Positions 9,401 to 62,213 of a DNA stretch of 64,000 nucleotides are shown in pieces. The notes under the pieces were generated by a model. It was given only the letters and a program-made list of their open reading frames with translations. It was not told the origin of the DNA and ran no database searches. The DNA lies in the IMG/VR virus record IMGVR_UViG_3300045919_000631, positions 32,001 through 96,000 of that record; one strand, 5' to 3'. Position numbers and translations under genes: made by a program. Position 1 is the first letter of the stretch; every line of letters starts with the position of its first letter. Source of the DNA: a virus.

Positions 9401-11262
9401 ACGGGTACTGCGGTGCTTTTATTGGTGCTGGATTTGGAAACTTTGTGTGCCAGCTTGGATCAGTAATTGTTGGTGGTGTTAGTAATACAGCTTGCGGTGC
9501 TTATTCTATTATAGCTGGTGGTAGAGTTAATAATATAGCAGCAAACACTGATGCAGCAGCTATATTAGGTGGGTGCGGTAATTATACATGCGGTTTTTGT
9601 TCATTTATCGGTGGTGGTTGTTTTAACTGTGTGCGAGACCATTTTAATGCGATAGTTGGTGGTGCAGGAAATCAAATTCAGCAAGGTCAAGCTTGGTCAA
9701 CTATTGCTGGAGGTCTTAGCAATTGCATAACAGGGTACTACACTAATCCAGCCAATCATTCATTTATTGGTGGTGGTTGTTTTAACACTGTGTATTGCGT
9801 TGACGGTGGTTTTATTGGTGGTGGTTATAGCAATTTAATACAAAGCACGTATGGATTTACCAACGGTCTTGGTAAAAACACAGCATCATCAATCGTTGGT
9901 GGCACAAATAATTGCATATTAAGCTCATACAACTTTATCGGTGGTGGTACAAATAACTTTATAAAAGCTTGCTACAGTTCAATTAATGGCGGTGCTAATA
10001 ACTCACTAAGCGGCTGTAACAGCTTTATTGGCGGTGGCTTTAGTAATTCTGCATCGGGTAATTGCGCCAGCATCGTCGGTGGTTATTGCAATATTTTAAG
10101 CAGTGATTGTAGTTTTATTGGTGGTGGCAATAATAATACCACTGGATACGGTACCAATATAGTAATTGCTGGCGGTAGTAATAATACTGCTAGTGGATTT
10201 TACACCACTATAGTTGGTGGGTGTGTAAATTGTATTTGCACCGGAGCTATTTATAGCTTTATTGGTGGTGGTCGTAATAACACAGCTGCTGTTGATACTT
10301 CAATAGTTGTCGGTGGATGCTATAATACCGCTTACGGTGGTTGTGGTGCTTTTGTTGGTGGTGGTTATCTAAATTTTACTAACGCAATAGCTGGAGCAGT
10401 CGTTGGTGGTTATCAAAATTGCTCAACTAGCGGTAACTACACTACTATAGGTGGTGGTCGCCAAAATACAGTTTGTGCTGAAGTTGCAGTAATTGCTGGT
10501 GGTTGCCAAAATTTCTCATGTGGACAGTATTCAGGTATTTTAGGTGGACAATTAAATCAAGTAAGAGATCATTGGTCATCAGTTGTTGGTGGGTGTGTAA
10601 ATTGCATACAACAAGGTAATTGTTATTCAACCATCGTTGGTGGTTTAAGCAATTGCATAACTGGTAATTATAACACTCCAGCAAACTTTGGATTTATTGG
10701 TGGTGGGGTTTGCAACCAACTGTATTGCGCAGATTCTGGCGCAATTGTCGCTGGACAATACAATTGCATTGTCCATCAAAATAACGGAGCAATTAACTTG
10801 GGTAAAAATATTGCTTCAGCAATTGTTGGTGGCACAAATAATTGCATATTAAGCTCATACAACTTTATCGGTGGTGGTACAAATAACTTTATAAAAGCTT
10901 GCTACAGTTCAATTAATGGCGGTGCTAATAACTCACTAAGCGGCTGTAACAGCTTTATTGGCGGTGGCTTTAGTAATTCTGCATCGGGTAATTATGCTAC
11001 TATCGTTGGTGGATATTGCAATTTAGTGACAACTGATTGCTCAGGCATTCTCGGTGGTATGTTCAATAAAGTTAGCCACGCTTGCTCGTTTACAGTTGGT
11101 GTCAATCTTTCAACAAACGCGACAAACACAACCTATATGAATAATTTGAGCGTTCAAACGTTATTGAATGCTGGCGGGCTTCCAAGCACCTCAGCTGGAC
11201 AGCCAAAAGGAACAATTTATTATTGCTCCACTGACTCAAATAGGCTATATTACGTGCCTTGA
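6463..11262 (+). CDS. long tail fibre/adhesin-like protein, Gly/Asn/Cys-rich repeats
   Basis: 1599 aa; repeated LTVVGNISA and QVQ(F/Y)N modules, then many (F/I/V)xGGxxN repeats; TAAATA at 6450-6455. Confidence 0.75.
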   Translation: MSQNVNYRDTNFTSLVSLGIGTDNPNHALTVVGNISSTGNIYGNFVAASGAGSAGGVNSQVQFNNSGLLAGDSGLTYTNSTSTLTVSNEYVKTALAIGILSGASALTVVGNISASGIIYGNIPLLSALASAFGPNTQVQYASAGLLASVPTFTYNPVNSSVNVPNVYTSNIILSSLAVGALSGSEVATIVGNLSVTGTIYGNLSTNQFLLSAAGPTNSVQFNLNGKLSADAGLTYTQATSTLFARNTNITLLTATSSVFTSKVGINTITPNEMLTVVGNISATGSIYGSVTIPPVTATGVAAGINTQVQYNRSGILSANAGFAYFDNLSSVVVGSGNSLSGLSAFNSAILGANNIVSHPNVFTLGSNLTSFAANYTLVNNLSTNGQVAANTVVANTLSAAGSIFGTFPQLSAAGAAAGAATWVQYNTGGALGADAGFIYLRTISGVQIGANNVVSGLYSGALGQNNTVSHNNAFAFGTNLVSNTANFTYVNNLSTPGQVRASCVTVVGDISATGTVYGTVVLPALTSTAFAAGSATNIQFAKNSLLAGDNAFVYLQSLTALQVGSNQAISGPFSSLVGGLSNTITASASFIAGGVNNRVDGINSVINGGTYNRSWSANSFIGAGTNNTVVNDLAVALGGNNNIVSGSGSANVGGIVNVVNGCYSANIGGALNNVQGTCAASVGGAFNQPAGTFSGTVGGCNNIACCAGSSVVGGFSNLACGNCSTIAGGVCNTTKGPYAAIIGGCCLTETGIASVLVGGLTNTITGSGSVIAGGLNNTATANYSLIGAGYNNAINNTVSGSVILGGSNNTITHNDAIVLGTGLSSVSANYVVVSNLSAKFNIYASNLPTAPTGESQAIYVSAGNFATNQGFQYLPQLSALVVGKGNSTVGLYGTVAGGYCNILSGDCSFIGGGNNNTTGYGTNIVIAGGGFNTSFASYAAMGGGFCNINNTTYGFVGGGRCNNNTADAGVLVGGCSNINNGYCGAFIGAGFGNFVCQLGSVIVGGVSNTACGAYSIIAGGRVNNIAANTDAAAILGGCGNYTCGFCSFIGGGCFNCVRDHFNAIVGGAGNQIQQGQAWSTIAGGLSNCITGYYTNPANHSFIGGGCFNTVYCVDGGFIGGGYSNLIQSTYGFTNGLGKNTASSIVGGTNNCILSSYNFIGGGTNNFIKACYSSINGGANNSLSGCNSFIGGGFSNSASGNCASIVGGYCNILSSDCSFIGGGNNNTTGYGTNIVIAGGSNNTASGFYTTIVGGCVNCICTGAIYSFIGGGRNNTAAVDTSIVVGGCYNTAYGGCGAFVGGGYLNFTNAIAGAVVGGYQNCSTSGNYTTIGGGRQNTVCAEVAVIAGGCQNFSCGQYSGILGGQLNQVRDHWSSVVGGCVNCIQQGNCYSTIVGGLSNCITGNYNTPANFGFIGGGVCNQLYCADSGAIVAGQYNCIVHQNNGAINLGKNIASAIVGGTNNCILSSYNFIGGGTNNFIKACYSSINGGANNSLSGCNSFIGGGFSNSASGNYATIVGGYCNLVTTDCSGILGGMFNKVSHACSFTVGVNLSTNATNTTYMNNLSVQTLLNAGGLPSTSAGQPKGTIYYCSTDSNRLYYVP
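9151..11007 (+). repeat. tandem ~930-bp duplication inside fibre gene
   Basis: 9895-10063 is identical to 10825-10993 (169 bp, offset 930); 9151-9245 is near-identical to 10078-10172 (offset 927); middles diverged. Confidence 0.9.
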
Positions 11263-12158
11263 TTTTTGACTGATGCAATTATTGCATTAACATCAAACAA
11301 TTCATTTGTGCTATATGGATACTCGTGATCTTGACCATCAAAATTATAGTCAAAGATAAAGCTATCAATTAAATGCTCCATATCGCGTTTTGCAGTTGGA
11401 TAGATATTATCGTGAATATTATATCCAAATGTTGTATGCGATGTACCGACCCAAGCAACTGTTGACGGCAATCCTAGCGTAGCGGCAGCATGTTGCATGC
11501 TACTATCAATCAATAAACGCTTTTTTGACATTAAAAGCATAGCCATGAACTCACGCTTACCAATTTCAGGCAGTGCCTCAGTCCCATTTAATTTAAAGCC
11601 GGTTGGTCTTGATACTTGAATAATATGATGCGTATCTTTAAAAGCGTCAACCACTTGTTGGGCCTGATAAATTGGAAAATCTCTGGTCCAGCTATACGGT
11701 TTTTGTGAAGCCCAGGCACCTCCACAAGTTTGAAATATCATTATTGGCTTAGGATTGGCGTATTTTTGTTGAACATTTTCAAGCTCTCGAGCATTAAAAT
11801 ATAGACGCGGAGTCTCATTGTTATATTTCAATTTAAACAATTCACACCAGCTGATAATAACGTGCTGCTTCTTTTGAATATGAGCGGCTGTAAAGTATGG
11901 CTCGTTTTTAAAGATTAATGTGTCTTTATCTTGAATATAATCTCTATAAAAATAAGGATGAGCTCCAGAGCGGTATACTCTTGCGACATTTGGGTTATTT
12001 AAATAAACTTCAGGCCAAGGTGTAACAACAATTAAATCACGTTCAGGATGATTTGCTTTAATTGCAGCCGCTACAGCTGTCGATGCAATGATTTTTCCAA
12101 GACCACCTTCAGGAATAAAAACGGAATAGCTTTTTGGCTCACTTAATACTAATGTCAT
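11250..12158 (-). CDS. GT9-like (heptosyltransferase-like, GT-B fold) glycosyltransferase
   Basis: GGLGKIIASTAVAAAIKANHPERDLIVVT N-terminal motif and IDSSMQHAAATLGLPSTVAW, matching the GT9 DSGxxHxAxAxGxP motif. Confidence 0.8.
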   Translation of the reverse strand: MTLVLSEPKSYSVFIPEGGLGKIIASTAVAAAIKANHPERDLIVVTPWPEVYLNNPNVARVYRSGAHPYFYRDYIQDKDTLIFKNEPYFTAAHIQKKQHVIISWCELFKLKYNNETPRLYFNARELENVQQKYANPKPIMIFQTCGGAWASQKPYSWTRDFPIYQAQQVVDAFKDTHHIIQVSRPTGFKLNGTEALPEIGKREFMAMLLMSKKRLLIDSSMQHAAATLGLPSTVAWVGTSHTTFGYNIHDNIYPTAKRDMEHLIDSFIFDYNFDGQDHEYPYSTNELFDVNAIIASVKNQGT

Positions 12159-23555: not shown

Positions 23556-24027
23556 TACTCTCATCTTAACGTTGTCTTCAACACCTCCAGTTGCAAACAC
23601 TAATGCTATGTTTGTTTTATCTGCTGCAATTCAAGGAATAACTCAGGTTCAACTCAATTACAATCTATTAAGTGCTTTTTCTTCTAAGATGTACAAAACA
23701 ACTTTAAATTGGACCTCAAGCGCAACAGCGGCGGTTAACGCGTCTTATGATAACTCAACTTTGCTTCCTTTTAATTCAGCATATACCAGCTACGTATATT
23801 CTCCATCAACGTCAGGTATAACAACAAAGCAAGCTGCGTTCAGTGTTTACTTTGAAAATGGTGCTATTCACACTTTTCGCGTTGGTCTCTTTATTTTAGG
23901 TGATAGCTTAATTGATCTTGACTTGAATGTCTTGAATGTTCAGAATATTGCTCAGCTTGGCTACAGCGTATTAAACGTCCAATCCAATAAACAAAACGTT
24001 GTTTTTAACGTATCCGATTTACGCTAA
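23536..24027 (+). CDS. hypothetical virion protein
   Basis: 163-aa S/T-rich ORF ending the plus-strand structural run. Confidence 0.55.
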
Positions 24028-25944
24028 ATAATTAGCAGTAACGTCTTTAATATAAAATGGTGAGTGGCCAGAATACCCTACACCAAATTTAAGATTCGTT
24101 GGAATTGCGCTCAACGCAAGACCGGTATTGATTGATGTTACAAGATTATATTTGTTATTTTGCAGTGCATATACATCTATCTGCTGCATATAGCGGCGAA
24201 GGCCGACACGAACAGTTCTTTCAATACTATCAAGCCCGTAAAACGTTGCAGGATTAACTGCAGCAGATGAAATGTAATTAAAGTTTGTACCTGTTCTTAA
24301 TGCAATTTGACTTGGAATTAATCCTGTCAAGCCTGTTGTAAACGCTGCTATTGAATTTTTTTGACTAAAAGCACCAGTAACGTCAAATCCAAGTGCCATA
24401 TAAATTCCAGAAATTGATGATAATGGTGTTGATGTATTATTACCAACTGTGGTTAATCCTGGTCCGCATGCGCCACCAGTTAGTGTTTGAACATTGGCAT
24501 CTATAAAGAATACACTAAAACCATAAGTACTGATTGTTGAAAATCCTGTTGACAATAAATTGAAAGTGAACCCAATTGTAAAATCATAATTTGCTTTAAA
24601 TGCTGATACAAACAACATTGAGCTGCAATACAATGGATATGTCGGTGTCGGTGTTGGAGTCGGTGTAGGGGTTGGAGTCGGTGTCGGGGTCGGTGTTGGT
24701 GGGCATGGTACAACTAACTGATCACCGTTTTGAGCCAATAGTGGATCAGATAACTCATCTGTCAGTGGGCATACAGTTGGTGTAGGTGTGACAGATGGTG
24801 TTGGAGTAGGGGTCGGTGTAGGGGTCGGGGTATTAGTAGGAGTCGGAGTAGGGGTCGGTGTTGGAGTATTAGTAGGGGTCGGTGTAGGACTTAAAGGAGG
24901 TGTAGGTGTCGGCGTGGGGGTTGGAGTCGGTGTTGGAGTATTAGTTGGAAGCGGAGTCGGTGTAGGTGTCGGAGTAGGAACAAACGGAGTCGGTGTTGGA
25001 GTATTTGTTGGTACTGGTGTTGGAGTTGGAGTTGGTGTCGGAGTACCAGGTACTGGTGTTGGGGTAGGTGTTGGGGTAGGTGTATTAGTCGGTGGTGGAA
25101 CCGGAGTCGGTGTGGGCGTTGGGGTAGGTGTACTAAATACTGGTGTTGGAGTAGGTGTTGGAGTCGGTGTATTAGTTGGAGTGGGGGTTGGAGTCGGCGT
25201 GTTTGTGGGCGTCGCTGTTGGTGTGGGAGTAGGAGTCGGGGTATTAGTAGGGGTTGGAGTCGGTGTAGGTGTCGGAGGATCGGTATTAGCTGTAAACTCT
25301 AATAGAGCATCAGATAATATTGAAACGTCGGGGTTTTGTGAAAGAGATATACTCGTTGGAGTTATTGTAAAATTAGTTTTTGGATTACTAATTGTATCTC
25401 CATTGATATTAAAATTGGAACCAAAATAGATTCCACCTGACGTCATGTTCTTAGAATCAGCTGATGTTACCCAATCACCACTTCCAATACCATTAACGTT
25501 TGTACCTGCTAAAGCTAGGCCAAGTGGACCGCCAGGAATAGAACTTGATAATGTCCAACCTCTGTATGAACCATTTTGAAAAGTTGCGGTTCCTCCAATA
25601 ATATCAATAGAAAGATTGACTATTAAAAGAGTGGAGTCGATTGATCGACCAGCTGATGCTGTTATTGCAGATTTACCTGTTGGTAAAGTAACATCAGCAA
25701 ACATTGTTGTGCTGACACCATCACCAACAATACTGCCTTGTGATACACCATCAAAGTATAAAGTATACGCAACATCAGTTGGAATAGGTGTTCCAAAAGC
25801 ATATATTTTATAACGAATTGTGCTTCCAGCGCTATACCCAACTGTCATTATAGCACCAACAATATTGTTTAATGCTTGCGATAATGTTGAGGATGATATT
25901 GTACCAATACCCTCAATATGGTCAAATGTAGCTCTTGTTGACAT
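24019..25944 (-). CDS. surface protein with long Pro/Thr linker and C-terminal lectin-like (ConA/L-type) domain
   Basis: about 200 aa of PT repeats; C-terminal [30 protein letters not shown] resembles legume-lectin fold. Confidence 0.65.
24641..25278 (-). repeat. (Pro-Thr)n coding repeat, two blocks
   Basis: degenerate hexamer repeats such as ggtgtc/ggagtc/ggtgta; blocks about 24641-24703 and 24775-25278. Confidence 0.95.
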
Positions 25945-25945
25945 A

Positions 25946-27757
25946 TTATTCTACAATGATATTATCAAGAATAGTCTTGTTGAACAAGAACGGAAATTTA
26001 AAATACGGCAGTTGAATATCAGTAGATTTCACTTGAATGTCTGTTGAATAGTTAGGATTAAACACCAGTAAAGTCAACCCACTTGAATTGATAACTAATC
26101 CATCGTCTAAAATTCTTCGCATACTATAATTTGCTACACCTGCAACGCTAAGGATTTGCGATACTAAATCACTCAAAGATACAAGCTGACCAAGCGTGCA
26201 ATTATCTGGAGCAAAATAGTTTTGAAAGATTGTATTCACACTATTTTTAATACTGTTTGAATCTACTCTAGCATCAGATGTCTTTGTTATTACTATGAAA
26301 GTTGTCTTTGCAATATCAGGAGTTAATGTCTCGCCGGATCCGGCTAATCCTAGCGTAAATGCTGTGTATATAGGATCTTGAGGCACAAGCTCCATATTTA
26401 GAGCTTTCAACGGATTCATTGTTGATATTATCGCGTTTTTTTGTGAATTTTGTAAAAAATACTGAGTGTTACTACTATCAACACTTTGGATGCGAGGTAC
26501 AGCAAAAATATAAACGTTGTTGTCTTGTCCAGCATGTGCAAAATTTACTTCATTTGACAAAAATCTAGGATCTCCGTTTGGTGATGCTAAACCTAGGTCG
26601 TAAAAGTATTTAATATAATTCTCTATAAATGAGTTATTATTAACTGCCTTAACATCAATTACAATGTTTGAAAAATTCTTTGATATAAAAGTCTTAAAAT
26701 CATCAGATGTCAGTAAACGATTTTGGCTAAAAAACGTCTTCGGAGAGTTTACTCTAATTTCATCAACTGTCTCTTTTTCTCTTGAAGATGAAGATGCGAG
26801 ATTATTTGAAAAGCTTATATTAGTTGCAAGATTAACGGAGATATAATTTAGTGTTGATGAAAATACGTCTGCAGATATCTTATTGAACTGAGGAGACTGA
26901 AAGAAATTAATTGTTTGGCCGTTTAATTGATTGGCTGATATAACACCAGATGCACCATCGCTTTGGAGATAATAAACATAAACTTGGTCATTTGTATTTA
27001 ATTTTTTGCCAAATACTCCGTTACCAAATTTAATTTCATAAAACTCGTTTTCGTTCAATCTAAGCTCATATTTTAAAGCATCTCCAGATTCTAAAAATAA
27101 AGAACTTGTCGGCACATACTCATTATATTTACCAGTTGTTGCATCAAGCACATATACTCCAAACCCTCCATCAATAAATAGTGGATTATTGGTTACAGTG
27201 TCTTTAACGACGACAGTTACTGTTTCCCAATTTTCACCTGTTGCAAACTGCGCAGGATACTCAATCCATTTGCCTTGTTTTAATAAATTTTCTTCATATA
27301 GCGTTGCCAGGTCTTCAGTTCCTGATAATGTCTTGCTGAAAGTTATATCGGATGGGAAAGAAAAATATATACCATTAACATCAAAAAACGAATATCTCGG
27401 GAGTGTGTATATACCAGTAGGAATATCTGATCCCGCTGTTGCCTCAAACGCTAAAAGCCCTGTTTGAAAACCTGTTGGCTTATAATTCATAAGCTTTACA
27501 AGTTTGTTCATATTCTCATATAAAGCTGCTTGGTCAAATTGAGCCTCTGCTCCTGTATTATTAAGATAGAACAAAAGATAGTGATAACTTAGTGCTATAA
27601 CATCCATTATAGCGCTGATATTACTCCCTTCAAAATTTTGATCAGTAAAGACCCCACCTTGCGTTAGCCTGTCTCTAATTAAACTTTTGAGCGTAAGTGC
27701 ATCAAAGGTTGCGTAACCGTTGCGTGGTAGTGTGAGATCTGTGAAAGTTGTTGCCAT
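25946..27757 (-). CDS. baseplate wedge subunit (T4 gp6-like)
   Basis: [65 protein letters not shown] gp6 motifs. Confidence 0.9.
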
Positions 27758-55214: not shown

Positions 55215-56543
55215 TCAACCTTTGCTAAGCATTGTAAGAGTATTACTGATTGAATTGAGATCTCCTGTGTTATTTAAACTATCATCCTCAAGCATTGTGA
55301 GTGTATGGTAATCCATTTTAAATGTCGATTTGCCGGCGTTAGTTCCAAATCTATTCTTCATCATACCTAAATTAATTGTGCCAAGCTCTCTTTCTTCGTC
55401 ATTTTGAAAGATGCTCACGAGTACATCAGCCGTGGCTGCTAAACCCATGCTCTCACTTAATGTCACAAGGCCTGGGTTATCAATGTCATATCCAGATCGA
55501 TTTAACTGAGTTGCTGATATAAATGGACATTTAAAGGTATATGTCATTGCGCGAATTTGTTCTGTTGTGCCTTTTACCCTCTCATAACTATTATTGCCTT
55601 CTGTCGCTTTTACGAGATTAACATAATCAACAACTACTGCATCAATTTTTATGCCTTTAGAAATTATGCCTTTTATGAAGCCCTGTAACTGATGAACTGT
55701 AATTGTATTTGGAGGAAACTCCTTAATAATAATTTTACCAGACTTACCATCCTTATGAATTTCATCAATTTGTTGCTTAAGTGTCTGATTTTCACTTCGT
55801 AAATCTTTGATCGGAATATGAGTTATATTTGATGCAAGTCTCTTCGCATACATTAGTTCACTCATTTCGAGAGTAATAAGCAAAACTGTCTTATTTTGCT
55901 TTGCTATGTTTGTGGCAATATTGCCTAATATAATACTCTTACCGATATTTGTCTCACCCGCAAACACATAAATTGCTCGACCATTTGTTAAGAACCCACC
56001 ACCAAGTTTCTCATCAAGCCATTTCCAGCCAGTGGATATTGTTGGCTGATCCGTGCAGATATCGTCAATTAAGGTATCAATATCTTTATAAAGGTCAATC
56101 CCGTCATCAGTTTTGAGACTGATATTACAGCTTTGTTCAAATTTATCTAAGATAAAACTTGTATCAACTTTACCGGCTCCAATATCTTCAGCAACTTCAA
56201 GCATCGTATTATAGATAGCTCGTTCTTTAATGTATCTCTCTGTATTTTCAACTAACTCATCGTTATTAAAATTTTTATCGATGTTTGTAAATGTGCGAAG
56301 AACAACTTTAAATGACTCCCTGGTTTCTTCAGAATTTATATAACTCTTTAATTCAGTAGCTGTAGGAACGGATCCACGCTTTACGTAGAACTCCTTAATA
56401 ATATTAAAGATAGCCTTAATATTTTTGTCTTTAAAATATGAAGGTTTTAAATGCTCTAAAATTGATGATAGATATTTTTCATCAGTTAGTGCTTTATACA
56501 CTATAATTGACTCATATTCATCCAAATTCAGTTTTAACCCCAT
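55215..56543 (-). CDS. replicative DnaB-like helicase (T4 gp41)
   Basis: AGETNIGKS, LITLEMSE, IKEFP, VVDYVNL, SATQLNRSG, SESMGLAATAD, MKNRFG. Confidence 0.95.
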   Translation of the reverse strand: MGLKLNLDEYESIIVYKALTDEKYLSSILEHLKPSYFKDKNIKAIFNIIKEFYVKRGSVPTATELKSYINSEETRESFKVVLRTFTNIDKNFNNDELVENTERYIKERAIYNTMLEVAEDIGAGKVDTSFILDKFEQSCNISLKTDDGIDLYKDIDTLIDDICTDQPTISTGWKWLDEKLGGGFLTNGRAIYVFAGETNIGKSIILGNIATNIAKQNKTVLLITLEMSELMYAKRLASNITHIPIKDLRSENQTLKQQIDEIHKDGKSGKIIIKEFPPNTITVHQLQGFIKGIISKGIKIDAVVVDYVNLVKATEGNNSYERVKGTTEQIRAMTYTFKCPFISATQLNRSGYDIDNPGLVTLSESMGLAATADVLVSIFQNDEERELGTINLGMMKNRFGTNAGKSTFKMDYHTLTMLEDDSLNNTGDLNSISNTLTMLSKG

Positions 56544-56548
56544 ATCAA

Positions 56549-56576
56549 ATTGTAAAGTCTAATTTTAGACTGTCAA
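56549..56576 (-). promoter_or_regulatory. sigma70-like promoter TTGACA-N16-TACAAT
   Basis: tgtcaa 56571-56576 and attgta 56549-56554 on plus strand; 5 nt before helicase ATG 56543. Confidence 0.7.
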
Positions 56577-57254
56577 CGTCTTACCAATATATTTTGAATA
56601 TTTTTCCAAAAAGTATTTTTCGCCGGCGATCCATTCAGGTGTAAACTCTCTCAGGCCAGGTGATTGATGAATTACAGGAACATCACCGACCACAATCGAT
56701 ACTTTATTAAGTGAGCAATCTAGCGAGAAATTTAGGTCATAGAAATGGAACTTAGCAGGGTTTGACTCATCAAATTTTACTGAAACTGGCAATTTTTCAA
56801 TATTGATTGCAATAAAAAGACCATCAATCATAATTGCTTGATGCGGTAAAGGACCAAATGATGTATAATAATAATCATTATACATTCCATGAGCAACACA
56901 ACCTTTTTGATCTTTTCTTTCTGAGATTAAGTGCCAAAGAACTGGAGATTTGATAGTAATTGCTGATGCACCCGCAAGGCCTAAAATAGTATATTGAGAC
57001 AAATATTTTTGCACTCGTTCACGTAAATCGTAACAATTTATAATAACATCATCGTGAACTAAAATAAGAGCATCAATTTGCTCATCTCGAGCTTTTTTGA
57101 TCGCTTTATTATATACAACAGCTAGAGATTCTTTATTTTCTCCGTAAAAATCTACATCACGTATAAAGTTATCAGATAGATACGGAGACTGACGCATAAA
57201 AATTGTGTCAGATAAACTCTTTTTCTGTGAAGCAATTGCAAATCTAATTCTCAT
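56565..57254 (-). CDS. GT-A fold (GT2-like) glycosyltransferase
   Basis: SLAVVYNKAI, LILVHDDV (DxD-like), GLAG, IDGLFIA, FDE..FHFYDLNFS, VIHQSPG. Confidence 0.8.
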   Translation of the reverse strand: MRIRFAIASQKKSLSDTIFMRQSPYLSDNFIRDVDFYGENKESLAVVYNKAIKKARDEQIDALILVHDDVIINCYDLRERVQKYLSQYTILGLAGASAITIKSPVLWHLISERKDQKGCVAHGMYNDYYYTSFGPLPHQAIMIDGLFIAINIEKLPVSVKFDESNPAKFHFYDLNFSLDCSLNKVSIVVGDVPVIHQSPGLREFTPEWIAGEKYFLEKYSKYIGKTLTV

Positions 57255-57565
57255 ATAAATTTTTTTCTATCATCCATTTCAGGCTTGTTTTGTTCAGTCC
57301 ACATTGCGCACATTATATTCCATATTGCAGCTGCGGCATGGTCTTCATTTTGATCACCTTCAAACCATGAAGTTAAATGGCGCTGAGCACTGTCATAAAA
57401 AACTGAAAGCGGCATTCCATGCTTCCAATTATTTTCTCCGTATTTTCCGGCGCCTCCAACATAATGTTGCGCGACTCTTTTTAATTCTTTGTGAGGAACT
57501 AAACTTAGGCGAGGTTTACCTTTTGCGGTATCGCGTTGAGCTCCTGTTTCAAACTGCCTGTTCAT
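57251..57565 (-). CDS. dATP/dGTP diphosphohydrolase-domain protein (DUF5664-like)
   Basis: FETGAQRD..GKPRLSLVP, GAGKYGENNWKHG, SAQRHL..W..G..EDHAAAAIWN signature. Confidence 0.85.
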   Translation of the reverse strand: MNRQFETGAQRDTAKGKPRLSLVPHKELKRVAQHYVGGAGKYGENNWKHGMPLSVFYDSAQRHLTSWFEGDQNEDHAAAAIWNIMCAMWTEQNKPEMDDRKKFI

Positions 57566-58043
57566 CTAAAATATCTTTAATAGTTTTCTCAAAAACTGCA
57601 TCTTTTGTTCCAAACTCATTATCAATAATAGTTGGCTCCATTTTTAAAAGCTTTTTAAAGAAACCAACACCAAGGCTATTAATTTCAGAGTTAACGTAAT
57701 ATTTTGAACTTACGTCTGAATAATCATTTAAGACTTTTAATATTAAACCTGATGCAATCCCTTTTCCGCTATAGCCCTTGTCAGTAACTATATAATATGT
57801 TTTAATGACGTCTGGACCTTTATGATTAAAAGAATATGCATGTAAGCCTATGATTTGATCACCATCTTTTGCTAATACAATAGGAAATAAATCCCACCAA
57901 GATACCATATTTGGGCAACGTGACCAAATCAATCCAAACGTGTTCATTACAAATGTATCTGTGTTATCATATACAAATCTCACCATTTCAAGTTTTTCTT
58001 GTTCGGTGGGGCCAACAACATACCTAACATTAAAATCGCTCAT
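57549..58043 (-). CDS. GNAT-family acyltransferase
   Basis: IVTDKGYSGKGIASGLI acetyl-CoA motif A; N..GVGFFKKL motif B. Confidence 0.8.
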   Translation of the reverse strand: MSDFNVRYVVGPTEQEKLEMVRFVYDNTDTFVMNTFGLIWSRCPNMVSWWDLFPIVLAKDGDQIIGLHAYSFNHKGPDVIKTYYIVTDKGYSGKGIASGLILKVLNDYSDVSSKYYVNSEINSLGVGFFKKLLKMEPTIIDNEFGTKDAVFEKTIKDILDEQAV

Positions 58044-58684
58044 ATCACAAAAAATGGTGAGTTCACTTTAAATTTGCCAACTTCTTTTGTACCTTTTTCA
58101 TCGAATTTATATATTAAGCCTTCTTTAATATCTTCAAATCCTTTTCCTTTAACTGACGAGAAGCTATTATTATCATAAAATAATGTGCTCCCTTGACGCG
58201 CTAAAAATATATCAGATGTTTTGCTATTAAAAATCCATAAACCAAATGTACCTTCAAGCAGCTCTAACACTGTTGCAACATTTTTAATAATACTTCCGCG
58301 GTGTTTTTGAAAGTGATTTAATAGTGCCGGAATAATGCTGCTGTCAACCACACCTTCATGCTCTGGTAAGTATTTCTTTTTGAGTGTTTCAAAATTTGTT
58401 AGAACACCATTGTGTGCTACAACCCAGTCACCGGCTTCAAAAGGATGTGAGTTATGTTCTCTATATACTCTTTCACTTGAAGTAGGTGCTTGATTATGAC
58501 CTAAGTAAATAAATCCGTCTGGAAGATTTCGTTCATTCCAATCAAAATTGCCCGAGGTCTTATGATAATCATAAGATTCACCATTTGAATATAAAATTCC
58601 TGAGGCGTAATTACCTCTACTTTGATTTACTTTATCAAGTATTTCAAACTTGGCTACATGAAAGCTTCCCCATATTCCGCACAT
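58040..58684 (-). CDS. class II (Ntn) glutamine amidotransferase, stand-alone
   Basis: MCGI N-terminal Cys, SRG..ASG, LGHNQAPT, HPF, VAHNGVLTNF, VDS. Confidence 0.88.
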   Translation of the reverse strand: MCGIWGSFHVAKFEILDKVNQSRGNYASGILYSNGESYDYHKTSGNFDWNERNLPDGFIYLGHNQAPTSSERVYREHNSHPFEAGDWVVAHNGVLTNFETLKKKYLPEHEGVVDSSIIPALLNHFQKHRGSIIKNVATVLELLEGTFGLWIFNSKTSDIFLARQGSTLFYDNNSFSSVKGKGFEDIKEGLIYKFDEKGTKEVGKFKVNSPFFVI

Positions 58685-58717
58685 TCCATATTATAAATGG
58701 TTTCCTGGAAAATCAAG

Positions 58718-59125
58718 TTAAGGAGCGATATAAGTCACTGTCAATCCATTATAAGCAATAACTGTTGAAACAGCAATATTTGCTGTAGTTAAACTGTTAG
58801 CATTAGCGTATATATTGCATGTTGTACCTGATGTTAGCCAAAAAGTAACAAAATTAGCAGCTGCTGTACCGTTCCAAACTTGGACAGATGAAGGTATAAA
58901 AGTTGGGTTACCTGCAGATAGTGTTATTGCTCTTGTATTACCAGAACCACCACCAACACTATATGTCAAAATTGCAGTCTTAAAAAAAGATTGTGTCGCT
59001 GAAAGGCCATCATCATAGCCAAAAACAGCAGATAACTGCGGAAAATTTGTGTCTGCGCTAAGAGAGACAAATTTCATGTACTCGACTGTGGCTATATTAT
59101 CGCGGACGTTGTTAATTACTGGCAT
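58718..59125 (-). CDS. small late virion-like protein
   Basis: S/T/A-rich, four LSA motifs; TAAATA (-) 59133-59138. Confidence 0.65.
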   Translation of the reverse strand: MPVINNVRDNIATVEYMKFVSLSADTNFPQLSAVFGYDDGLSATQSFFKTAILTYSVGGGSGNTRAITLSAGNPTFIPSSVQVWNGTAAANFVTFWLTSGTTCNIYANANSLTTANIAVSTVIAYNGLTVTYIAP

Positions 59126-59191
59126 ACTAAATTATTTAGTCTACGACTGTGCAATATTAAAATATTGCGTAACCATTAAATAAATAATCAT

Positions 59192-60328
59192 ATGAATAAT
59201 TTCTATAGTTGCAGCTGGGTTCAAAATACCAAAAACTTACCTAACTCTGCTGAAATGCTAGAAGAAAGCATTGCATCTGTATTAAAAGATACAATGAAGA
59301 AAATTCAGGCAGCTAAATCAGGTGTTCCATACCGTGATGCACGACTATTCTTTTATCAATTTTTACAAGATAAGTATAACGAAAAAATTCCTCAAGAATA
59401 TAAAGACTTAGGACGCAAATTAGCAGGTAAAGAAGTGAACGCTCTTATGGGGGCTATGATGCTTGATGAAACATTGCCAAAGAATTTTATTGAAAAGATT
59501 GGCGACGAATTTAAAAAATATTCCGATGAAGAAGTGCCCGGCACGGATTATGATAGATTAAAAGCTTTTCTTAATAAAGAGGTTGGTGGGCGTGAATATC
59601 GAGGCGTTGCTCCTGGAGGTGAAAAACGCATGATGAAAGTTAATAATGAATTTGTACCTTATAAATCACCTGATGAAATTAAGTCTGCAATTACCCACAC
59701 CTATGCAGAAAAAGATCTCAAAAAGGGATCGACGGGATATGAAACTTTAACACTCAATCTTGACCCAACGACGAAGTTTTCTTTTGAATCGGAGTCGCCT
59801 ATGGGTACTCCAATTTATGTTGCATCAAAAAATGGTCTCAAGTTTAGAGTTACTCTAAAAGATGACCACGGTAAAGATATTGAACTCAAAAATATTGGAC
59901 CTGATGCAATTTCAAGTGTTGTCGTAACAAAACCAACAGAAAGTGAGACAGTTACTCTTCCAACACCAAATGAATATGACGCTGAAGCACCAAAAATTGG
60001 TCGCGAAAAGTCTGTTGCTGATTTTCCAAATGGAGAACATGAAGATTGGAGCAAAGGTCCATTAGATCCTGAAGATTCTGCATATGGTCGTGAAGAAGAC
60101 GCATCAGAATTTGCTAATAAAACAGATATGACAACCACTCAACACACTATGAGCGCAAGCCCAATGAACATTCAATCACTTCCTCATATTGAGATAGTAT
60201 CTATTAAACCTCATAGAGAGTCTGTAAGACTCTCTCCTCAAGCAGTAAACAAACTAATGCGTGAGCAAATTCGTGCTAAGCAGCAGCACGTTTATGGCAC
60301 AGAGCGTAAATACGGTCCAGGTCGCTAA
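59192..60328 (+). CDS. hypothetical late protein (possible head-internal)
   Basis: 378 aa, charged; TAAATA 59181-59186; MLEE near N-terminus. Confidence 0.7.
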   Translation: MNNFYSCSWVQNTKNLPNSAEMLEESIASVLKDTMKKIQAAKSGVPYRDARLFFYQFLQDKYNEKIPQEYKDLGRKLAGKEVNALMGAMMLDETLPKNFIEKIGDEFKKYSDEEVPGTDYDRLKAFLNKEVGGREYRGVAPGGEKRMMKVNNEFVPYKSPDEIKSAITHTYAEKDLKKGSTGYETLTLNLDPTTKFSFESESPMGTPIYVASKNGLKFRVTLKDDHGKDIELKNIGPDAISSVVVTKPTESETVTLPTPNEYDAEAPKIGREKSVADFPNGEHEDWSKGPLDPEDSAYGREEDASEFANKTDMTTTQHTMSASPMNIQSLPHIEIVSIKPHRESVRLSPQAVNKLMREQIRAKQQHVYGTERKYGPGR

Positions 60329-61107
60329 GGTGCAATTTCTTTGCACTTATTTTTCTTATAGACCTTATCTATCTCTTTTTGTTGCAAATACTTGATCGGA
60401 TCTTTGTATTTTGCATCAATAAAGCCTTTTAATCGTAGAGCACTCGATGGCGTCTCAGCATCTGCTAGTCCATCATCTCTTTGTGAATAGCAAGTCCATG
60501 TATTTGCAAAGTTCACTCCCATTTCAACACCAATCTTAACAATATCTGCTTTACTTTTGTCTAGAAGAGGAGCTTCAATTGAAATCTTATGTTGCCTATT
60601 AAGACCAACAACAACATTCATTGAATTTACAAAGTTTGTATCTCCATCCCAGTAGCCAGCCAACGAGTCTGCTTGAGCAGCACCGTACCAAACTTTATCA
60701 ATTCCATTTGCTTCAGCATATGAACATGCAATTGATAAAAACATCATATTTCTATATGGAACATATGACTTTGGCTGTGCTTCACCGGCTATATCTTTAA
60801 TATTTGGTGTTGCAATATCGTTATTTGTCAGTGACGACACAGGTGCTATGTCCTTAATGTAAGAAACATCAATAACTTTGCGGTATGTCATCACATTTGA
60901 ATATAATCCTCGTAGCTCTTCTAGTTGCTGTTTTACACATTCAAGTTCTCTTTTGTGGCGCTGACCATAATCAAAAGAAAGGGTATAAATTTCTTTATAC
61001 CCATTGCGAATTGCTAAGTGTAGCAATACTGAAGAATCCATTCCTCCACTAAATGCTAATACCAATTTCTTAGACATTCCCAATTTTACAATAGTTCCTA
61101 TACTCAT
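60325..61107 (-). CDS. queC: QueC-like PP-loop ATPase (7-cyano-7-deazaguanine synthase family), degenerate Zn site
   Basis: AFSGGMDS, FDYGQRHKRE, YVPYRNMMFLS, APLL..SKADIV..G, TWTCY; alternative start ATG 61077. Confidence 0.88.
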   Translation of the reverse strand: MSIGTIVKLGMSKKLVLAFSGGMDSSVLLHLAIRNGYKEIYTLSFDYGQRHKRELECVKQQLEELRGLYSNVMTYRKVIDVSYIKDIAPVSSLTNNDIATPNIKDIAGEAQPKSYVPYRNMMFLSIACSYAEANGIDKVWYGAAQADSLAGYWDGDTNFVNSMNVVVGLNRQHKISIEAPLLDKSKADIVKIGVEMGVNFANTWTCYSQRDDGLADAETPSSALRLKGFIDAKYKDPIKYLQQKEIDKVYKKNKCKEIAP

Positions 61108-62213
61108 ACTGCATCATCTTCAACCTCATCTGGAACTTCAGCTGCACCTCCTGTAGATGCCATTCCATATTTCCACTCTGTCTTAATGCGTTCCTCAATT
61201 CCTGGTACAATAAAATTGTCCCAAAGCTCAATATCATTTTTCCAGCGACCATATTGACCAATTTTATCTCCATTTGGCTTTGTGTATGTGCTTCCGCTTT
61301 GGTTGATGACACCAAGCCCAACTGCTAAATCAAGTAAACCATAGTATTTAGCAAGACCACTTTCAAAGCTTAGATACATCTCTCCTTCAAGATATTGTTT
61401 TGCAAAACGGTTCTTTGCTGTTAATGCTCTAAGAATTACTCCAGGATAGCTTTTTTGCCCCACAGCTAATTTTGATTCAATATGCTTATCTTCTTTCATT
61501 GGCTTGCGAGCCAATTGAACTGTTACTGACGGAAGATAGACTGCAGCACGACCGCCTGGCATTTCTTTTACAAGAGAAGGAAACATTGCAGATGGATCAT
61601 CAAAGATATGATTTGTTGCAAGAATCGTTGTCTTGGTTACAGCAGCTAATTGCGTTGCTGTTCTCAGTAATGATTTAACTGCCTTTGCTCTACTTCCCAT
61701 ATCAGCAGAAACATTACTCTTTTCCATTCTGTTGATTTGAATCTCGCTTTCCATATTACCAAGCGAATCAATTGCTACTACAAACTTATCAGTAATACCT
61801 TTTTCTTGAGCTTTCTTCAAGAAAGACCAAAGAGTGTTTCTACATTCTTCAAGGCTAAATGATGGAACATATTTAACCAGACTTGAATCTAAACCTAGAG
61901 CCTCTGCTCCTTGAGCATCAATTGCGTTTTCACTATCAAAAACGACAATCGTTTTACCTGCTTTCTGTGCATTAGCAAGAATTTTTTGAATGATATATGA
62001 CTTACCGGTCATAGATGGGCCTGCAAATAAAGTTAATCTATTTTTTGGAATCCCGCCAAAAAGAGAACCGGAAATAATGCCGTTAAGCACCATTGATCCG
62101 GTGTCCCACCAACCCTCTACATTTGAAAGTGCTCCATTTTTCAGAAATGAAGCATATGGATTTAACTTATCAATTTCACCTAAAATTTCATCGAGATCAG
62201 CGTCTTTGGCCAT
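61104..62213 (-). CDS. uvsX: RecA-like recombinase (T4 UvsX)
   Basis: DTGSMVLNGIISGS, AGPSMTGKS, FDSENA, IDSLGN, ADMG.RAK, TNH, KNRF. Confidence 0.93.
   Translation of the reverse strand: MAKDADLDEILGEIDKLNPYASFLKNGALSNVEGWWDTGSMVLNGIISGSLFGGIPKNRLTLFAGPSMTGKSYIIQKILANAQKAGKTIVVFDSENAIDAQGAEALGLDSSLVKYVPSFSLEECRNTLWSFLKKAQEKGITDKFVVAIDSLGNMESEIQINRMEKSNVSADMGSRAKAVKSLLRTATQLAAVTKTTILATNHIFDDPSAMFPSLVKEMPGGRAAVYLPSVTVQLARKPMKEDKHIESKLAVGQKSYPGVILRALTAKNRFAKQYLEGEMYLSFESGLAKYYGLLDLAVGLGVINQSGSTYTKPNGDKIGQYGRWKNDIELWDNFIVPGIEERIKTEWKYGMASTGGAAEVPDEVEDDAV

Follow-up and report, generated by a model that had tools for sequence, protein, structure and literature searches.

A candidate 7-deazaguanine DNA modification locus in a marine T4-like phage: QueC arm and side-chain tailoring cassette

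What do the five enzyme genes clustered between the UvsX recombinase and the gp41 helicase of an uncultured marine T4-like phage make together? In the window, the whole 64,000-nt stretch of DNA analysed here, these genes encode a QueC variant, a class II (Ntn) glutamine amidotransferase (GAT), a GNAT acyltransferase, a DUF5664 protein and a GT-A glycosyltransferase (GT). A preliminary description proposed that they constitute a free-standing pathway for a novel DNA modification. We consider it probable that the region instead belongs to a DpdA3-type 7-deazaguanine DNA modification system, of which it comprises the QueC arm and the cassette for side-chain tailoring.

Gene order and enzyme assignments

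On the minus strand, the gene for UvsX (61104..62213; RecA PF00154, E = 2.1e-14; phrog_97, E = 1.4e-53), which serves as the upstream anchor and whose nearest cultured phages are cyanophages with only ~31% identity, is followed by the QueC variant (60325..61107), two unrelated ORFs, and then the overlapping genes for GAT (58040..58684), GNAT (57549..58043), DUF5664 (57251..57565) and GT (56565..57254). The downstream anchor is a gp41-type replicative helicase (55215..56543; DnaB_C, E = 6.4e-26; phrog_19, E = 9e-75). Read directly from the sequence, the GAT/GNAT and DUF5664/GT junctions are both ATGA overlaps and the GNAT/DUF5664 junction is a 17-nt overlap, while 21 nt separate the GT stop from the gp41 start. 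The QueC gene lies upstream of GAT, its end 1.64 kb from the GAT start. Within this gap, an antisense ORF of 378 aa (59192..60328, plus strand), to which no function is assigned and which has no Pfam or PHROG match, holds a conserved position between QueC and GAT; its homologs (27-54% identity) occupy the same place in relatives, and antisense ORFs at the corresponding site encode 346 aa in locus L072 and 471 aa in L006. The second ORF in the gap (135 aa; 58718..59125, minus strand) is an orphan without a family match, for which tblastn against the related loci gave nothing, and in other lineages an HHH protein takes its place (L006:12189-12641; HHH_3, 1.4e-11). Since the order UvsX-QueC-...-GAT-...-GT-gp41 was found again in well over 100 IMG/VR loci, the arrangement is not due to chance. 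The ORFs, Pfam matches and junctions confirm the gene order given in the preliminary description, and all five of its enzyme calls agree with the Pfam matches.

The QueC protein, of the PP-loop 7-cyano-7-deazaguanine synthase type, matches PF06508 at 184.9 bits (cut-off 22; E = 1.7e-54) and retains an intact PP-loop motif, FSGGMDSS. It had been called a variant, rightly so: in an alignment to Bacillus subtilis QueC (3BL5; E = 4.7e-25), YWDG replaces YPDC and three of the four Zn-binding cysteines are lost, with the TCY cysteine alone kept. These losses are common to all marine relatives compared. The QueC of phage immuto_2-6A also has no C-terminal Cys cluster, and those of ValKK3 and CP220 keep the cysteines.

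GAT is a stand-alone protein with matches to GATase_6 (E = 7e-10) and GATase_7 (E = 1.3e-07), both above cut-offs. Its N-terminus, MCGIWG, places the catalytic Cys after Met, and the oxyanion motif is present as AHNG; among 73 distinct relatives, 66 start with MC and 72 have HNG. Over its full length it can be aligned to the Ntn protein that Vibrio phage ValKK3 encodes beside QueC (26% identity, E = 3e-9, phrog_12378), and we infer from such sequence evidence that GAT may act as the glutaminase partner of QueC. The GATase and QueC domains lie on separate genes with two ORFs between them, and do not form a single-polypeptide fusion.

Deazaguanine backbone genes in the contig and its relatives

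No folE, queD, queE-type radical SAM or TGT gene was found in the window, where the preliminary description had seen no folE, queD, queE or dpdA, nor in the whole 109,280-bp contig, which is 52% complete. QueF, DpdA3 and purZ (PF00709) likewise gave no match in this 52%-complete contig; a control search demonstrated that the Pfam TGT model fails to detect DpdA2 or DpdA3. The incompleteness of the contig would explain why FolE, QueD, QueE, QueF and DpdA3 are not visible in the phage's own DNA. The contig (G000) is collinear with sister contig G011 up to G000:108971-109180, and beyond the last shared gene G011 encodes FolE, a 468-aa protein of unknown function, QueD and QueE. Judged by this collinearity, the window's contig ends ~0.4 kb short of FolE, and synteny puts the DpdA3 gene in the missing part as well. 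By synteny with its relatives, this phage is predicted to encode all five proteins.

In the relatives, including three complete genomes, FolE, QueD, QueE, QueF and DpdA3 are located elsewhere from the cassette. A bimodular QueF was found in every searched relative with at least 72% estimated completeness (G001-G004 and G021-G023), as well as in G005, G025, G033 and G034, and every relative with sequence over the QueF region has it. The DpdA3 of the complete relative G004 shares 49.6% identity with the protein annotated as DNA guanine transglycosylase in immuto_2-6A, and less with CP220 (47%) and phiST (27%). Genomes with the GNAT cassette, namely the complete G021 and G023 along with G022, G025 and G034, have a DpdA3-AAA_28-QueF operon, and their DpdA3 proteins are 55-61% identical to that of G004.

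The anticipated setting of DNA base modification was borne out, and the idea of a free-standing five-enzyme pathway was not, since relatives carry FolE, QueD, QueE, QueF and DpdA3 and the window's own contig stops short of FolE. As this deazaguanine gene set is present in relatives, the base backbone in this gene system is, on gene content, that of the known deazaguanine pathway and not a new one. FolE, QueD and QueE, encoded just past the contig end, would generate 7-carboxy-7-deazaguanine, which the Zn-less QueC, using ammonia from glutamine supplied by its predicted partner GAT, would convert to preQ0. QueF would then reduce preQ0 to preQ1, and DpdA3 would exchange guanine in DNA for the base.

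A different product would be expected if the split GAT and QueC behaved as the Gat-QueC fusion of phage 9g does, yielding the archaeosine base (G+) or the amide (ADG) and hence dG+ or dADG in DNA. The domain pair matches Gat-QueC (PMC6884629), the window QueC aligns to the C-terminal part of the longer profiles phrog_1550 and phrog_10428, and its altered C-terminus could change the chemistry. We nonetheless regard this as very improbable, as the relatives covering the region have a bimodular QueF, which needs preQ0, together with an acyltransferase, which needs the preQ1 amine. In addition, immuto_2-6A, whose QueC shares the loss of the Cys cluster, carries fdPreQ1 in its DNA (PMC10516641). 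As QueF would carry the pathway on towards a derivative of preQ1, QueC is expected to deliver preQ0 and not G+.

The acyltransferase slot and the accessory genes

The GNAT protein matches Acetyltransf_1 (PF00583) at 25.2 bits (cut-off 20.7) and contains a glycine-rich motif A-type segment, GKGIA, with the consensus RGxGIAK across its 28 aligned relatives. The slot that it occupies, between GAT and DUF5664/GT, holds GNAT in 32 distinct cassettes and DpdN in 10, is empty in 37, and never holds both. The cassette DpdN, found in a sister clade, carries PF00551 and is 45% identical (E = 3e-47) to DpdN of immuto_2-6A. PF00551 was absent from the window's 109-kb contig (52% complete), and no formyltransferase was found in the complete cassette-GNAT genomes G021 and G023; G022 encodes GNAT plus an unrelated 241-aa formyltransferase. 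Conversely, in G001, G002, G003 and G005 DpdN adjoins QueF and GNAT is missing, while in the complete relative G004 a GNAT lies exactly at DpdN's position, beside DpdA3 and QueF. On the gp41 tree, just 2 changes suffice for the slot states, to which a single swap within the QueF operon is added, and the GNAT-or-DpdN pattern thus rests on about three events rather than many independent ones. The cassette and G004 operon GNATs are barely similar (BLASTP E = 0.009; hhalign probability 16%).

From this pattern we infer that GNAT is likely an N-acyltransferase of the preQ1 aminomethyl group and a functional substitute of DpdN. A chemical precedent is provided by gp48 of phage PaMx11, a GNAT that N-acetylates 5-aminomethyl-dU in DNA (PMC8989533), although the window GNAT had no tblastn match at E <= 1 in 50,697 phage records, PaMx11 among them. 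GNAT would transfer an acyl group, in the simplest case from acetyl-CoA, to the aminomethyl nitrogen of preQ1 or dPreQ1 and thereby take the role of DpdN, the formyltransferase of the sister phages; the product would be acetamidomethyl-7-deazaguanine. Since an acetyltransferase stands where the sister phages have a formyl-adding enzyme, an undescribed acylated DNA base is probably made. This acetyl-preQ1 base, the predicted product of GNAT-type phages, has not been described before.

The stand-alone DUF5664 protein matches PF18909 at 83.4 bits (cut-off 27; E = 1.2e-23), covering profile positions 3-99 of 99. Its AlphaFold2 model is a helical bundle (pLDDT 87.6), to which MazG-type chains align with Z scores of 4.9-5.9 only, within noise for helical proteins. 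DUF5664 proteins had been described as dNTP pyrophosphohydrolases, in agreement with the literature (PMC12884076), where a stand-alone member of the family from Arthrobacter phage Wayne was demonstrated to have this activity; by analogy, the window protein is a probable dNTP (dATP/dGTP/dUTP) pyrophosphohydrolase. The gene is missing from the complete relatives G004 and G021, and its presence requires 5 changes on the gp41 tree. It is a dispensable accessory gene, whose product would optionally trim the purine dNTP pool.

GT matches Glyco_tranf_2_5 (PF13712; E = 1e-10) at 42.1 bits against a cut-off of 27. Its AlphaFold2 model (pLDDT 95.4) has UDP-bound majastridin (2QGI) as its best PDB match (Foldseek E = 1.6e-11), and across 34 sequences the residues HDD 67-69 (acidic, DxD-type), WH 107-108, H122, H170/Y172/D173 and the H196/S198-L201 motif are invariant. 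IMG/VR holds 478 relatives, and there was no match in 50,697 cultured-phage records. The GT-A matches are glycan and protein glycosyltransferases, with no hint of a nucleic-acid acceptor. GT is an active-looking putative nucleotide-sugar transferase, conserved and co-translated with the cassette genes, to which we assign no acceptor.

These data bear on the proposal that the five enzymes act in sequence as a single new pathway, in which a canonical dNTP is depleted, QueC and GAT amidate a base or sugar, and acylation and glycosylation follow, yielding a base that bears both an acyl group and a sugar. The four downstream genes are co-oriented and overlapping, almost every relative has GAT coupled to GT, and the DpdN ortholog inside the cassette links the operon to deazaguanine tailoring. 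However, GNAT and DUF5664 come and go, the latter to the point of absence from complete relatives; GT occurs without QueC and GAT in one lineage (G036), and QueC and GAT occur without GT in L075 and L076. An acylated aminomethyl nitrogen would also leave no obvious sugar acceptor, and the known GT-A matches suggest none in nucleic acid. We therefore consider a single linear pathway unlikely: the five genes do not have to occur together, and nothing was found that shows the glycosylation of a base that had been envisaged.

The same GT-A matches could indicate that GAT, GNAT and GT have no connection to DNA and tailor an amino sugar or glycan of the host envelope or a phage protein, their adjacency to QueC being due only to a variable site that separates uvsX from gene 41. 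GlmS-like names among the PHROG matches of GAT and the retention of GT without QueC and GAT in G036 are in keeping with this. Yet GAT, at 214 aa, consists of a glutaminase domain only and has no sugar-isomerase domain, GT-free Vibrio phages have a homologous GAT after QueC, the sister clade fills the GNAT slot with DpdN, a dedicated deazaguanine enzyme, and GNAT and DpdN are complementary genome-wide, all of which makes glycan tailoring distinctly improbable. Under the favoured reading, a deazaguanine tailoring cassette, the novelty of the locus is kept in narrower form: a GNAT standing in for DpdN predicts a new acyl-preQ1 base, and it is joined by a conserved GT to which this reading gives no role.

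Comparison with known systems

Individual components of the locus have counterparts in several phages. PaMx11 gp48, the 5-aminomethyl-2'-deoxyuridine N-acetyltransferase, is likewise a small phage GNAT that acetylates a nucleobase aminomethyl group and belongs to a hypermodification cluster, but its substrate is the pyrimidine 5-NmdU rather than a 7-deazapurine, and its likeness to the window GNAT is one of predicted chemistry only. The Wayne protein and the DUF5664-DUF550 MazZ of Acinetobacter phage SH-Ab 15497 (PMC12884076) share PF18909 with the window protein (83 bits), and the former resembles it further in its stand-alone form of ~100 aa and its location among nucleotide and base-modification genes. 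In contrast, among the homologs listed, the Arthrobacter-phage proteins are only ~31-36% identical to it, and no PurZ, the adenylosuccinate-synthetase homolog of Z-genome (2-aminoadenine) systems, was found in the window's 52%-complete contig. DUF5664 proteins are often encoded by phages with ordinary DNA, too.

The Gat-QueC of Enterobacteria phage 9g and Crenarchaeota, an archaeosine enzyme, similarly combines a class II GAT and a PP-loop enzyme of the QueC type within the deazaguanine pathway of a phage, whereas the window has two genes 1.6 kb apart and not a fusion. In the Vibrio schizoT4 phages (the ValKK3 and phi-Grn1 group), QueC is directly followed by the homologous ~200-aa Ntn amidotransferase, and this pair is part of a FolE/QueD/QueF cluster in a T4-like genome. 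Unlike the window, these phages have a QueC that keeps the Zn cysteines, and their amidotransferase is followed by no GT, GNAT or DUF5664. The literature assigns DpdA2 and DpdM to the group, and relatives of these phages have a preQ1 derivative in their DNA (PMC10516641).

The DpdA3-type system of immuto_2-6A resembles the window's relatives in DpdA3 (~50% identity), bimodular QueF and the intervening AAA_28 kinase-like gene, in FolE, QueD and QueE-like genes and in a QueC without the C-terminal Cys cluster, and a DpdN ortholog (45% identity) is encoded by the window's sister clades. The systems differ in that the window's clade has GNAT where the sister clades have DpdN, and in the stand-alone Ntn partner of the window QueC, of which no homolog is detectable adjoining the immuto_2-6A QueC. 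The window operon also has DUF5664 inserted, plus the GT without a cultured-phage match, and here the genes are distributed among three sites of the genome, within a replication module of the T4 type.

Gene order around the cassette

The contig carrying the window is a linear IMG/VR record of 109,280 bp with an estimated completeness of 52%, of which bases 32001-96000 were studied here. No nucleotide match to the window was found in 50,697 phage records, and the nearest cultured UvsX, from a cyanophage, is ~31% identical to that of the window; this phage is far from anything cultured. On the minus strand, UvsX (61104-62213) is followed by a QueC homolog (60325-61107), an orphan 135-aa ORF with no family match (58718-59125), an Ntn glutamine amidotransferase (GAT; 58040-58684), a GNAT (57549-58043), a 104-aa DUF5664 protein matched by PF18909 over its whole length (57251-57565), a GT-A glycosyltransferase (GT; 56565-57254) and a gp41-type helicase (55215-56543). 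We refer to the genes from GAT to GT as the cassette. The coupling of these genes noted in the preliminary description was confirmed, as ATGA overlaps join GAT to GNAT and DUF5664 to GT, GNAT and DUF5664 overlap by 17 nt, and a gap of 21 nt separates GT from gp41.

Wedged between QueC and the cassette on the plus strand is an antisense ORF of 378 aa with no family match (59192-60328), and antisense ORFs of 346-471 aa occur in the same place and orientation across the clade. The orphan ORF (58718-59125, minus strand) is rich in Thr, Ser, Asn and Ala and had no homolog in about 200 related loci; in other lineages a helix-hairpin-helix protein stands at its position (for example locus L006:12189-12641). 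In the lineage of the related genome G004, GT and gp41 are separated by the antisense insertion of a gene for a DUF1501 protein (sulfatase/phosphodiesterase-like, E 2.2e-108; L072:13187-14446, minus strand). Elsewhere in the window, 8001-12000 and 24001-26000 have a G+C content of 0.39-0.42 versus about 0.34, with a strong positive GC skew of 0.11-0.28.

A probable 7-deazaguanine backbone and a putative QueC partner

The preliminary description proposed that QueC, the amidotransferase, GNAT, the diphosphohydrolase and the glycosyltransferase form a new five-enzyme pathway, while allowing that a folE/queD/queE/dpdA set elsewhere would make it a known one. Models for FolE, QueD, radical-SAM proteins, TGT and PurZ (PF00709) had no match in the 109-kb contig, which is 52% complete. 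A protein search with QueC recovered 80 IMG/VR loci at 49-65% identity, and the order UvsX-QueC-...-GAT-GT-gp41 was kept in nearly all of those with enough flank. The records behind the long QueC loci encode FolE adjoining QueD, a QueE-like Fer4_12/radical-SAM protein and a bimodular QueF, the enzyme that reduces preQ0 to preQ1. Pfam TGT (PF01702) detected no DpdA anywhere; since in a control this model also missed the known DpdA3 of the cultured phage CP220 and the DpdA of DpdA2-bearing phage ValKK3, the negative was meaningless and was discarded. DpdA3, a DNA transglycosylase subfamily defined in PMC10516641, was found together with QueF in the 100%-complete genomes G021 and G023 and in G022, G025 and G034, all of them relatives of the GNAT type. 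As a possible DpdA2, phrog_10773, a 458-aa unknown from the ValKK3 que cluster, was also tried and had no match in 11 relatives.

From 80.6 kb to 109.18 kb, each gene of the window's own contig has its counterpart in the same order in G011, a relative of the same sub-lineage (UvsX 78%); G011 then continues with FolE, a 468-aa unknown, QueD and a QueE-like gene. Our contig therefore ends about 0.4 kb before FolE. FolE and QueD would be absent from it because it ends there, and QueF and DpdA3 are predicted by synteny to lie further out in the missing half of the genome. The 468-aa protein of this sub-lineage, between QueD and FolE in G011 (L129:2195-3601, minus strand), has no Pfam match; in its place, G004 has PhoH between QueE and QueD. 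The pathway backbone is probably that of a known DpdA3-type 7-deazaguanine system. The preliminary proposal is thus supported in part. A setting of DNA base modification stands; a free-standing new pathway does not, as the full set is present in relatives and, in this phage, is placed by synteny only.

The window QueC (185 bits) retains the PP-loop FSGGMDSS. In an alignment with Bacillus subtilis QueC (3BL5), YPDC is replaced by YWDG and three Zn cysteines out of four are lost; these changes are common to all marine relatives fetched. The C-terminal cysteine cluster is kept in ValKK3 and CP220 and is absent from the QueC of another cultured phage, immuto_2-6A. Since the DNA of immuto_2-6A carries fdPreQ1 (PMC10516641), a QueC lacking this cluster appears compatible with a working preQ0 route; a host QueC may serve instead. 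In GAT, the catalytic Cys directly follows Met and an HNG motif is present, features found in 66/73 and 72/73 relatives, respectively. A tblastn search of the 50,697 phage records with GAT gave weak matches only; GAT does align end to end (26% identity, E 3e-9) with the Ntn protein that Vibrio schizoT4 phages encode directly after QueC. Because the same QueC-GAT pairing occurs in two distant T4-like lineages, these data support a role for GAT as a putative glutaminase subunit supplying ammonia to QueC. Since relatives encode QueF, QueC would be expected to make preQ0 and not archaeosine. The immuto_2-6A protein gp027, also encoded beside QueC, was considered as a GAT homolog and is not homologous. 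A stand-alone glutaminase partner of QueC is not named in the deazaguanine literature examined.

GNAT and DpdN as probable alternative acyltransferases

Where a locus has GAT as well as GT, the slot that follows GAT can be compared. GNAT occupies it in 32 distinct cassettes, of which 22 include DUF5664 and 10 do not. A formyltransferase occupies it in another 10, each of which includes DUF5664, and 37 have an empty slot; no distinct cassette held both enzymes. The cassette formyltransferase aligns end to end with gp204 of immuto_2-6A (45% identity, E 3e-47) and matches PF00551 above the cut-off. Judged by its sequence, it is a true ortholog of DpdN, the formyltransferase that makes fdPreQ1. 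Lineages with an empty slot keep the acyltransferase in the QueF operon. This operon reads DpdA3-DpdN-AAA_28-QueF in G005 and immuto_2-6A, and DUF3307-DpdN-AAA_28-QueF in G001, G002 and G003. In G004 (complete, 184.5 kb) it reads DpdA3-GNAT-AAA_28-QueF (L115:5088-7921), and the genome has no formyltransferase. Apart from the cassette, G004 is thus another instance in which an acetyltransferase takes the position of the formyltransferase. Its GNAT, of 181 aa, stands exactly where immuto_2-6A and G005 have DpdN; orthology between this protein and the cassette GNAT was not demonstrable.

Genomes with a cassette GNAT have a bare DpdA3-AAA_28-QueF operon. Genome-wide, four DpdN-type genomes lacked GNAT, and the complete GNAT-type genomes G021 and G023 lacked a formyltransferase. 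Both enzyme types were seen together in G022 alone, which in addition to its cassette GNAT encodes a 241-aa formyltransferase unlike DpdN (L217:1195-1917, minus strand; G022:45829-46551; PF00551, 64 bits). Taken over the slot, the QueF operon and whole genomes, this distribution indicates that each genome carries one acyltransferase, of the formyl or GNAT type, at one of two sites. A phylogenetic caveat applies, since two changes on the gp41 tree suffice to explain the slot states, which makes about three events when the QueF-operon swap is included. We infer that GNAT replaces DpdN in the window's clade.

GNAT had no match among the 50,697 phage records by tblastn, nor did GT, and a GNAT profile matched only generic N-acetyltransferases in the PDB, at E-values of at least 0.0035. 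A GNAT from another phage, PaMx11 gp48, N-acetylates 5-aminomethyl-dU in DNA (PMC8989533); tblastn against the same records revealed no sequence relation to it. By analogy, the cassette GNAT would yield an N-acyl, most simply an N-acetyl, preQ1 base, and the predicted acetyl nucleoside would be 14 Da heavier than that of fdPreQ1. Calculated from the formulae, with C2H2O added to dPreQ1 (295.13), its neutral mass would be about 337.14 and its [M+H]+ about 338.15; fdPreQ1 was seen at 324. In the DpdA3 operons, the gene directly upstream of QueF is always an AAA_28 P-loop kinase-like gene (L115:6439-6999, L116:8907-9494, L117:10472-10996 and matching genes in L213-L222), for which the immuto_2-6A annotation is thymidylate kinase; this could mean that one step of the pathway acts on nucleotides and not on DNA.

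The glycosyltransferase, DUF5664 and comparison with known systems

The GT model (pLDDT 95.4) adopts a GT-A fold. Its best match (E 1.6e-11) was to majastridin with UDP bound, itself an enzyme of unknown function, followed by STIV A197 and then by assorted glycan and protein glycosyltransferases. An HDD motif and several His/Asp positions are invariant, and nearly all relatives have GT coupled either to GAT or to the genes inserted after it. A solitary homolog (48% identity) occupies the interval from UvsX to gp41 in G036 (L161:7926-8684), with two antisense ORFs flanking it; G036 is a 34-kb contig in which QueC, GAT, GNAT and FolE/QueD/QueE were found nowhere. Loci L075 and L076 have QueC and GAT without GT. 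No ThyA-family hydroxymethylase was found in the window's own contig, G002, G004 or G021, which makes hmC or hmU from the known route an unlikely acceptor for GT. The acylated preQ1 side chain would offer no obvious acceptor for GT. A doubly tailored purine, in which GNAT adds not a plain acetyl but an acyl group with a free hydroxyl or amino group to the preQ1 side chain and GT then adds a sugar to it, seems to us improbable; if real, it would have no precedent in a phage genome, either as a glycosylated 7-deazaguanine or as a purine bearing a sugar.

Metagenomes are rich in stand-alone DUF5664 homologs of 100-125 aa, and 818 phage records also contain them, mostly those of actinophages, including Mycobacterium, Propionibacterium/Cutibacterium and Arthrobacter phages. 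The assignment of DUF5664 as a diphosphohydrolase in the preliminary description is sound, as in a 2026 study the stand-alone homolog from Arthrobacter phage Wayne turned dATP, dUTP and dGTP into dNMPs (PMC12884076). DUF5664-like proteins are also found in Arthrobacter phages with canonical genomes (PMC12884076). Fold searches (Foldseek PDB and VIA wide) returned nothing above helical-protein noise. The gp41 tree implies no fewer than five gains or losses of DUF5664. G004 and G021, both complete, and G002, 93% complete, lack the gene; MazG (PF03819), absent from 12 genomes, does not replace it. DUF5664 is an accessory and not a step of the pathway. An NTP pyrophosphohydrolase next to DpdA3 is recurrent: directly upstream of DpdA3 in immuto_2-6A is gp208 (L117:8273-8797), annotated 'hydrolase' and matching the PRA-PH/MazG superfamily (3.1e-10), phage phiST has the dUTPase/MazG-like CGPG_00068 (PMC10516641), and DUF5664 occurs here.

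The window's clade probably carries a variant of the DpdA3-type system, with GNAT in place of DpdN, a putative stand-alone QueC glutaminase, an optional DUF5664 and a conserved GT co-translated with the deazaguanine genes. The replacement of DpdN by GNAT appears to have taken place in a widespread uncultured marine T4-like clade. As deazaguanine bases shield phage DNA from restriction enzymes, host defences able to recognise the formyl form may have selected for it. Eight 7-deazaguanine derivatives, none of them acetylated, have been reported in phage DNA (PMC10516641, the one paper in the searched literature to mention DpdN or DpdA3 in this sense), and the replacement predicts a ninth.
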